Source: Girardia tigrina
Lineage: Eukaryota
NCBI GenBank assembly: GCA_001938485.1
Contig: MQRK01215963.1
Span: 1 to 51,628, forward strand
Direction of reading: 5' to 3'
DNA length: 51,628 nucleotides
Position numbers and translations under genes: made by a program. The number at the start of each line of letters is the position of its first letter. Positions within the stretch are counted from its first letter, which is position 1. The notes under the pieces are model-generated. The model was not told where the DNA came from. It saw nothing but the letters and a program-made list of their open reading frames with translations, and made no database searches. Positions 36,293-39,200 of the stretch are shown here, in pieces.

Positions 36293-39200
36293 CACCTTTT
36301 GTTAACTTGGAAAGTTTTGAGAAATAATAAAAATTTACGTGATTCGATTTTTTTGTATTTAATTCGAAATTTGGAATCGGAAAACTGAATGGACGAAAGC
36401 ATCGAGAATTTGGAAAAATAGAGATCCGGCAATAGAAATCAATGAAGTATTTTATAAAAGACTTGTAATGAGAAAATACGTGTGAAATAAAATGAACCGG
36501 ACCTATACTTTATGTTCAGGCAATTATTACTGTAATGTGAGTCTTTCTTCAACCTTTTTTACGTTATAGATATATATATATATGTGTTTTTATTTATTAC
36601 TTATTTCACATGTATTTTTTATTTTTTTTTGTGATGTATCTAATGTTTTATACGTGTTGAATTGTGTACTTCATTATCATTTTTTATTCTTTTTTTTATT
36701 TTTTCAATTTTTATTTAATTTATTTGTTTCCATGAAGAAAAAAAAGAGAAAGAAAAAAAATAAAGACAATAAGCAAGAGAAATTCCATCCTAATTTATGA
36801 TTATAATAATTAAATTTGGATGGCAGAATAAGTTATGAAATTTTAAATGGCAATCAATTCTAATGATTTGCAATTTGAATTTCATAAGTAACTAGACAAC
36901 CAAAAATAATTCATCATCGAATTACTTACCAACGAATTTCTGACTTACCGAAGAATCATTTCTCAAAGAATTGAATTATTTGATCATTTCTCAATTACTG
37001 AATTAATTATCCGCGACTGAATCAGCAGAACATTATTCTGAGAATTAACCACAATTTGGTATTATTATAACGGTTATTTCTTACCTAGTGTTACAGAGTT
37101 ATATCATACGTTTTTTTTCAACTAATTATTTTTTCGCATTTATTAATTGTTAGTGTAAAAGTTACGCTGACTAAGTTAATCAAACAGTAAAAGTCATATC
37201 TAGGTTTGATAAGCTTACTCAATCATTTGTTATAATTGAATTTTTACCTAAACACAGCTAAAACTCCCTCTTTGTTCCTCATTTATTAGCGAGCAAAGAG
37301 TGAGTTTTACAATTGGTGTCAGAAGTCTAAGAACTCTCAAAACACTCGCTTACATTCACAACAAGCATTATTTTTTTAATGGCAAACAGAAACAAACAAA
37401 AGAATAATAATGCATCACAAACATACCTCTCCATATCCAACACAAATCCATTTAAAAAATTACATTTTAAAGTACCCGAATTCCCAGTAAATAACAAAAA
37501 ACTCATAAATCAATGGTTCGAAACGTGCATAAATCTTTTCAAATTCAATAACATTATCGACGACAGAACCATTTGCACACACCTAATAAATCATTTCCCA
37601 CATGACCTACTCAGTAAAATGAAGGACAAGCTACTCGACTTTTCAAAATCAATAAAACCAACAGCAACTCGATATTCAACATTCGATCGGGAACTATTAG
37701 CAATATTCCGTTCAATAAAACATTTCCAAGAATATTTAGAACACAGACACTTTAATATATACACTGATCACAAATCATTAACACATGCACTCGATTTAAA
37801 AAACCCAAGCCTACGCCAACTAAACCAAACATGTTACATATTACAGTTCGATTGTAAAATATATTATATACCTGGAAAAAGCAACATAGTAGCAGATTTT
37901 TTGTCACGCAACAAAGTCAACGAAATATTTTTCTTTAACTTCTTAGGCATTAATGATTGTATATCGTCATATACAATCATTATCTTATAAATAAAGATAA
38001 GAGATAAAAGTTAACTTTAAAAAGTAAACTTTGACATCTCATAATTATTCATTTCATTTAGAAATAAAATGGATCTTATTCAAGTTAAAGAAGAATACAT
38101 CCAATGGCTCGTAATAACAGACATCTATTGGAAGATGGAAATTATTCTGTCGATGATCAACAATAAAAAGAAAAACTGGTATTTTACAGGAAAGGATCGC
38201 GAAGAACTCAAGAATGTAGTCCATCGCTGGTTGATGCACGTCAACCAGAGATACAATGGCTTTCCGAAAAAAGATGGGCTGTCCCTGCTGCCGGAGGTCC
38301 CTTTCGATCACCCTGCAGCAATATATCTCCAAAAAGGGATGGTCGAGAAGAAATTCATCAAAGCAACTCAAGGCAGATCGATGATAGAGAAGCTTTTCCA
38401 GTCGATCAATGAAAACTATGTGATGTTCAAAAAGAAAGTAGCAGGTACAAAAACTTTTTTTTTGATTCGATCTCTTATCACGCCCATTAAAGGTACACCC
38501 ATTTAAGACATTCCAGGAATTGTGCTGAATAAGTTCAACCATGTGGTCCGACTGAGTCACCTGGTGGAGGTCAGAAGAAATGAAGCAGTGCGAGTTATGT
38601 TAAGATCCGATTCCCTCGGAATCGGATCTTATCAGTGGGGTCTGTCGCAGGAAGTCAATGACTATCTTTACCACTCGCTTGGTGTAAGATATGAGGCTTT
38701 CGCGAGCCCCATTGAATGGCGCTTCAACGGGAAAGCTGGAGCGAGATTTTGCTCGTTATTCCCGGACACCGACGAGGTGTTCGGGTCAATGGGGGACTTT
38801 TTCGAATTGGACCTTACCAATTTTTTAAGCCACAATTGGAGCATCAATCCTCCATTCGAAGAAGAAATTTTGCTGCGCGCAGCAAAGAAGATCGTCCAGC
38901 AAACAAGATCCACTGACCCAAGTGAAATAGAAATTTCATTCTTCTGTCGGTTCCCGGATTGGCAAAATCGCGAAGCATGGGTGATGCTCTGCAAACAACA
39001 AGATACAATAATTGGGTAAACGGACTGTTGACCACAGGACTATTGACCATAGGACTGTTGACAATAGGACTGTTGACCACAAGGACCATTGACCATTAAT
39101 TAATTTGCATTGCTGACAGTTTGAAGAGAATTTATCGTTTAAATTGAAGAGAAATTGAAAATGTTTAGTTTGTTAGTTCAATTAGTATTAATTAATTCAT

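Follow-up and report, generated by a model that had tools for sequence, protein, structure and literature searches.

Within a 51,628-nucleotide stretch of the Girardia tigrina genome (GenBank contig MQRK01215963.1; the window, by which we mean the whole stretch), an intronless gene resembling the methyltransferase PCIF1 lies among transposon remnants. The locus raises two questions: where a gene of this shape came from, and whether it does anything in its present surroundings. We addressed both through the features of the window (Table 1), the other copies in the genome, structural models and phylogeny.

Table 1. Features of the PCIF1-like locus and its flanks, in window coordinates
Feature	Position	Strand	Basis or detail
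LTR-like repeat	36615..37314	+	Repeat comparison
Internally deleted gypsy-type remnant	37315..37957	+	Gag-like start to 37659 (putative label) joined to reverse transcriptase RNase H, 37643-37957
5' flank common to other subfamily copies; possible 5' UTR	37959..38068	+	Copy comparison
Pseudogene copy of compact, WW-less, intronless PCIF1-like gene, 3'-truncated	38069..38989	+	Frame, profile and copy comparison
Compact helical domain: four main helices, EY.QW and RW motifs	38069..38503	+	Model and alignment
In-frame TAA, codon 146	38504..38506	+	Read from the assembled sequence
Methyltransferase domain without the last two predicted strands and final helix	38507..38989	+	Profile and L055 model
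NPPF catalytic motif, retained	38846..38857	+	Alignment to human and zebrafish PCIF1
25-bp filler at the truncation point	38990..39014	.	Sequence comparison
High-copy Mutator-like element	39015..40732	+	Left terminal repeat; FLYWCH-MULE transposase 39246-40688; right terminal repeat absent
Second copy of the LTR 3' end	40730..40803	+	40738-40803 is 98% identical to 37249-37314

A truncated copy in a transposon mosaic

The frame opens with an ATG at 38069 and with the N-terminal sequence that a first, sequence-only reading had quoted, both of which we confirm, and a single phase stays open through to 39019 apart from one in-frame stop, whose TAA is absent from the remaining aligned copies. It has no introns, as had been stated, running as one frame collinear with intact paralogues. 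The reported lack of a WW domain also holds: residues 1–145 give 0 Pfam matches at E ≤ 1 with a library that recovers this domain (PF00397) in the canonical P0206 and P0207, and 13 relatives scanned lack it too. PF12237, the PCIF1 methyltransferase profile, which despite its name spans the methyltransferase (it aligns to human and zebrafish PCIF1 across NPPF), matches the part after the stop with E 3.5e-26.

Likeness to other gene copies ends at 38989. The window copy corresponds to residues 20–306 of a 363-residue intact paralogue, leaving about 57 C-terminal residues missing and, with them, the last pair of strands and the closing helix of the paralogue model. This truncation would probably disable the methyltransferase domain by itself. 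The Rossmann domain that carries NPPF is incomplete here, through both stop and truncation, and complete in paralogues L055, L056 and L057. Omega between the window copy and its two closest copies is 0.78 and 0.97 (135 and 110 codons, with few changes). The proposal that this copy acts independently of Pol II is not supported, since the stop, the truncation and these omega values speak against any action: the window copy is a dead pseudogene, without function, and a mere marker of its family.

The surroundings are built from gypsy-type and Mutator-like elements, both common in the genome. To the left of the gene, the LTR-like repeat is followed by a motif that is presumably primer-binding-site-like; the gypsy-type internal start (window 37314) follows four different LTR-end sequences in L121, L123, L124 and L125. 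LTR sequence flanks the gene by about 700 bp on the left and only 66–74 bp on the right. A Pack-MULE arrangement is not seen: the gene lies outside the left terminal repeat (39015) and, as the right repeat is absent, is not placed between terminal repeats. The combination that would represent LTR capture exists as a single copy, found at 0 of 27 other loci.

That the gene is functional cargo of the surrounding element, capping or modifying its RNA in a particle, is very improbable. It does lie between the LTR-like repeat and the second LTR end, and the copied DNA begins 110 bp upstream of the ATG, as a captured transcript might; yet the gene is stopped and 3'-truncated and the gypsy portion is itself gutted, gypsy or MULE flanks occur at none of the 27 other gene loci, and no MULE match among 40 scored candidates extends into the PCIF1-like gene. 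With flanks unique to this locus, the idea of a working cargo, raised in the sequence-only reading, is set aside. The window copy is best explained as a passenger, carried in a mosaic of gypsy and Mutator remnants that occurs only once; the mosaic itself may have arisen by retroelement template-switch capture, by later insertion with deletion or by an assembly join. A 13-bp word that stands twice in tandem at the Mutator/LTR joint (window 40717–40742) hints at a microhomology join. None of 24 sequencing runs contained half the words of 37200–40850. Away from the gene, window 28037–28324 forms a perfect inverted repeat with an N gap (28156–28205) at its centre, probably an assembly artefact.

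A compact form of the PCIF1 helical domain

The N-terminus had been described as unfamiliar and possibly foreign. Structural models and alignments instead point to a compact PCIF1 helical domain. The intact paralogue L055 (model pLDDT 87.8) aligns structurally over residues 15–362 with human PCIF1 196–668 (Z 28.8, rmsd 3.6, 325 residues), the next-best structural family reaching Z 9.3. When the window's first 145 residues are folded alone (pLDDT 86.7), zebrafish PCIF1 comes top of 48,161 chains (Z 8.5, rmsd 5.3, 123 residues), a rank that unrelated bundles effectively match (8.1 and 8.0). In a multiple alignment the RW motif falls on the NRW motif of canonical PCIF1, whose helical domain exceeds the compact form by well over 100 residues; R53 (38225–38227) is the sole nearly invariant column of the N-terminal domain among 25 rows.

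The compact form has its nearest likeness in viruses. A profile built solely on the N-terminus (17 flatworm-type rows) reaches E 2e-10 against IMG/VR proteins and at best E 0.18 against canonical PCIF1. Flatworm-type and viral forms also have in common a shortened helical domain and an insertion that follows FASP. Other searches with this region were empty: hhalign of family against canonical profiles aligned the methyltransferase part with no extension into the N-terminus, Foldseek of the N-terminus alone against viral models gave nothing at E ≤ 0.001, and the same query against the atlas gave no match above 0.81. As modelled, the window's N-terminus is a compact, viral-type version of the PCIF1 helical domain.

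Paralogues, relatives and the origin of the family

Searches of the genome (1.43 Gb, 255,254 contigs) return 33 DNA matches to the window gene, 36 matches to PF12237 (4 of them host PCIF1 exons) and 65 protein matches to a relative's protein, counts that are lower bounds and include redundant contigs. Six paralogues (L055, L056, L057, L058, L059 and L060) are complete, stop-free and intronless. Their catalytic motif is NPPF in L055, L056 and L057, SPPF in L058 and NTCF in L059 and L060. A seventh frame, in L062, is interrupted by the contig end. Omega in three pairs of intact paralogues is 0.25, 0.30 and 0.43, which amounts to moderate constraint at most, and dS is large or saturated in several pairs; two further pairs are saturated. 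The window's own subfamily has a full uninterrupted frame at 0 of 22 loci, many of them on short contigs. Deeper comparisons within it give omega of 0.38–0.74 in ten pairs, suggesting that its ancestor was once under constraint, and 1.25 in one short close pair.

Several copies have neighbourhoods of their own. In L062 a 4.9-kb contig carries two paralogues in tail-to-tail orientation, and in G000:C176000 two matches lie 5 kb apart; both arrangements suggest local duplication. Around one subfamily copy, L063 carries AT-rich direct repeats of about 315 bp (3892-4207 and 6292-6602; 86% identical, 2.4 kb apart), with no LTR-like ends seen in them. At L002:903-, L003, L007, L008 and L020, a sequence of about 40 bp, inverted at both ends, bounds a gene piece; these pieces resemble a small non-autonomous DNA transposon with an internally deleted gene fragment, and the one in L002 starts within another copy of the PCIF1-like gene. 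Near its paralogue, L060 has a 501-residue intronless hydrophobic frame (688-2190) with no Pfam match. Eighteen weak matches to A32-type packaging ATPases (L161-L163 and 15 further places in G000) possibly mark Polinton-type elements.

The host retains a canonical PCIF1, as the sequence-only reading had asked to have checked. We found this WW-bearing, intron-containing gene exon by exon, separate from the window; its exons match the 687-residue WW-bearing P0206 over its full length, the WW exon with 73% identity. A difference in base composition from host exons of the window had also been put forward. No host exons were identified there (33 candidate frames scanned, with 3 Pfam matches, all to transposase domains; small exons could escape such a scan). 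GC3 does differ between the window gene (0.51) and the five 3' exons of host PCIF1 (0.26; its 5' exons range from 0.22 to 0.46). We dropped composition as a sign of foreign origin. It is uninformative on this point because GC3 spans 0.31–0.69 across the PCIF1-like family and an old transfer is expected to have converged on the host.

Named relatives in the flatworm-type clade are all from Macrostomum lignano, which has several paralogues; one of its proteins, P0071 (BOX15_Mlig000263), is 1283 residues long with three tandem compact PCIF1-like units. The clade also holds the unnamed P0004, P0005, P0007 and P0072 and one metagenome contig, L172. Outside it are 3,641 representatives at E ≤ 0.001. 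BLAST reaches 4e-31 with a viral protein, against 1e-11 to 1e-9 with canonical proteins. The nine best viral fold matches (E 4e-16 to 9e-9) include eight with names, all large DNA viruses, among them Bodo saltans virus, pithoviruses, CroV, Hokovirus and salmon gill poxvirus. In the atlas, the three best clusters are 46–73% viral with Nucleocytoviricota commonest, at a recognition score slightly below threshold. Scans of IMG/VR gave 5, 37 and 9 loci in overlapping sets, and the checked loci lie beside genes for capping enzyme, RNA polymerase, DNA polymerase B and topoisomerase II; viral-contig scans with P0009 and P0075 gave no match. Among 49 proteins scanned are fusions, probably viral, to RPB2 (P0082), RPB1 (P0176), poly(A) polymerase and glycosyltransferase 8 (P0078), the cap methylase FtsJ (P0013), XRN (P0148) and RNase III (P0121).

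Phylogeny separates the family from the host gene. An 80-row tree of the methyltransferase core (LG+G4; near-duplicate viral and most environmental rows dropped from a fuller set of 211; the canonical label on 10 of 14 rows assigned in this analysis) places 18 flatworm-type rows in one clade (99/96) inside a 66-row virus/environment clade (100/93), while host PCIF1 joins P0205 and P0206. Most environmental rows in our trees are nameless and labelled protists are absent from them. Constraining the flatworm clade to join host PCIF1 lowers the log-likelihood by 128.6 units and is rejected (AU test, p-AU 2.5e-8), upholding the earlier claim that the gene is not a plain copy of host PCIF1. The two marks of host descent that the sequence-only reading had named thus part company: the N-terminus does align to the helical domain, but the gene does not come out as the sister of the host's PCIF1. 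A retrocopy of host PCIF1, diverged and stripped of its WW exon, would likewise be intronless, with the same fold, NPPF and a helical domain; it is scarcely credible given the AU result under the model used, BLAST scores that favour a viral protein over canonical ones, and the shortened helical domain and post-FASP insertion held in common with viral forms. The PCIF1-like family is of the same kind as the viral enzymes and is not derived from host PCIF1.

The direction and date of its arrival are less firmly fixed. With 34 rows and the LG+C20 mixture model, the flatworm clade nests in a group (97/93) alongside three rows from IMG/VR and six environmental ones, and its union with viral homologues, apart from canonical PCIF1, has support of 100/97. 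No single viral lineage emerges as sister of the flatworm clade in either the 80-row tree or a 60-row tree that includes the helical domain and omits canonical rows. Virus-to-flatworm transfer is likely, short of proven because a position outside the viral radiation is not rejected: when all 48 viral and environmental rows are kept as one group with the flatworm clade outside, p-AU is 0.21 (LG+G4). Of the two sources that had been suggested, a large DNA virus or a protist, the viral one is favoured, as the nearest non-flatworm relatives are giant-virus proteins. An old cellular lineage of compact PCIF1, from a protist or early eukaryote and sister to the viral radiation, which flatworms retained or obtained from a protist, we consider unlikely; the mixture-model tree nests the flatworm clade among viral rows, and among the named matches the clade holds no other animal or protist, so that many losses would be required.

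The 60-row tree recovers the flatworm-type clade at 100/100. Within it, a 13-row group (97/97) unites all rows from the planarian's own genome with P0004, P0005 and P0007, the window copy nested inside and the Macrostomum rows outside; P0007 and L070 form a cross-species pair at 100/100. As the Macrostomum rows fall outside this group, we infer a single acquisition before the Macrostomum and planarian lineages split, followed by lineage-specific duplication. A different history, in which an unsampled large DNA virus of flatworms inserted the copies again and again, most of them functionless and none domesticated, is improbable. The copies are indeed intronless, with GC3 up to 0.69 in an AT-rich genome, and the window subfamily has no full uninterrupted frame at its 22 loci (many on short contigs). 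Against this, orthologue-like pairs span species, no viral genes were recognised in the 20 stretches inspected around paralogues, each 10 kb or less (by eye, with one neighbour profile-scanned), and IMG/VR scans with the flatworm alignment yield only distant matches of 23–44%. Furthermore, L172, the sole flatworm-type metagenome contig, has no other frame over 100 residues in 2.4 kb, and a search of the genome for NCLDV capsid was empty, a weak result without a positive control.

The reading that we prefer, and regard as probable, is that the locus is a broken copy of a WW-less, intronless family that groups with giant-virus homologues and likely came from a large DNA virus, its intact paralogues being predicted cap-adenosine N6-methyltransferases. 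A bolder version, possible and held tentatively, is that free-living flatworms domesticated a giant-virus cap methyltransferase before the Macrostomum/planarian split and expanded it into a Pol II-independent, cap-adjacent m6A family with active and decoy members.

Predicted function and known systems

As PMC8287941 and PMC10544176 describe it, PCIF1 holds the cap sandwiched between its helical and methyltransferase domains, with NPPF catalytic, and its WW domain binds the Pol II tail and has no role in catalysis; according to PMC10544176, no other enzyme writes cap-adjacent m6A in mammals. In intact members of the family the compact helical domain and the Rossmann domain would grip the m7G cap from either side, and members with NPPF would use SAM and this motif to place a methyl group on N6 of the first adenosine in capped RNA. 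Lacking a WW domain, they would have no tether to the Pol II tail; their action would follow transcription and probably take place in the cytoplasm, as expected of their viral kin. We predict that the intact NPPF paralogues are cap-adenosine N6-methyltransferases not tethered to Pol II, and the NTCF and SPPF paralogues are likely to be inactive or altered cap binders.

If this is right, a retained, expanded and probably virus-derived WW-less family would be an unusual instance of animals keeping a giant-virus gene, and it would supply an animal with a second, virus-derived cap-modification pathway, a natural test of cap-adjacent m6A uncoupled from transcription. More than one writer may then lie behind m6A signal close to 5' ends in these worms. 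RNAi is usable in planarians, and together with transgenesis in Macrostomum it makes the idea of a second writer testable. Literature searches for PCIF1 or m6Am with planarian, Schmidtea, Macrostomum or giant virus, whose coverage excluded most subscription papers, found no report of a flatworm PCIF1-like family, and PMC12864844, returned for m6Am and planarian, mentions PCIF 0 times. Viral PCIF1 homologues are already on record as annotations; the flatworm family is apparently undescribed.

The family shares with animal PCIF1/CAPAM (PDB 6IRV, 6IRW, 6IRX-6IS0) the helical domain and the Rossmann domain with NPPF, as the whole-chain match of L055 attests, but has no WW domain or linker, is intronless and multi-copy, and is not orthologous, the host's true orthologue being a separate gene. 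Non-metazoan PCIF1-like proteins of under 480 residues are described in bioRxiv 10.64898/2026.10.22.757692 as cap-specific in vitro, with 10 of 55 active and 45 of 55 without activity. Two of them, PC04 and PC05, as described there, resemble the flatworm proteins in size and in their helical plus methyltransferase module; animals were excluded from that screen by design, according to the same account. The DIRS1 methyltransferase domain, placed in the PCIF1 clade by PMC4738411, is likewise a PCIF1-related domain beside retroelement sequence, but sits within the DIRS1 polyprotein and is described there as inactive, whereas the flatworm genes are stand-alone frames with a helical domain, tied to no single element. 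Phage relatives are described in PMC7824862, and PMC7909422 gives Kaumoebavirus KLCC10_0094 as a compact viral PCIF1-like protein. The flatworm family differs from the compact PCIF1-like proteins of Nucleocytoviricota (Bodo saltans virus A0A2H4UTM5, CroV E3T4I2, pithoviruses, salmon gill poxvirus A0A0H4XWM9) in its setting, an animal genome where many paralogues lie among host transposons with no viral neighbours seen, and in its presence also in Macrostomum. With these same viral proteins it shares its size, the lack of a WW domain, the compact helical domain, motifs, indels and position in the tree.
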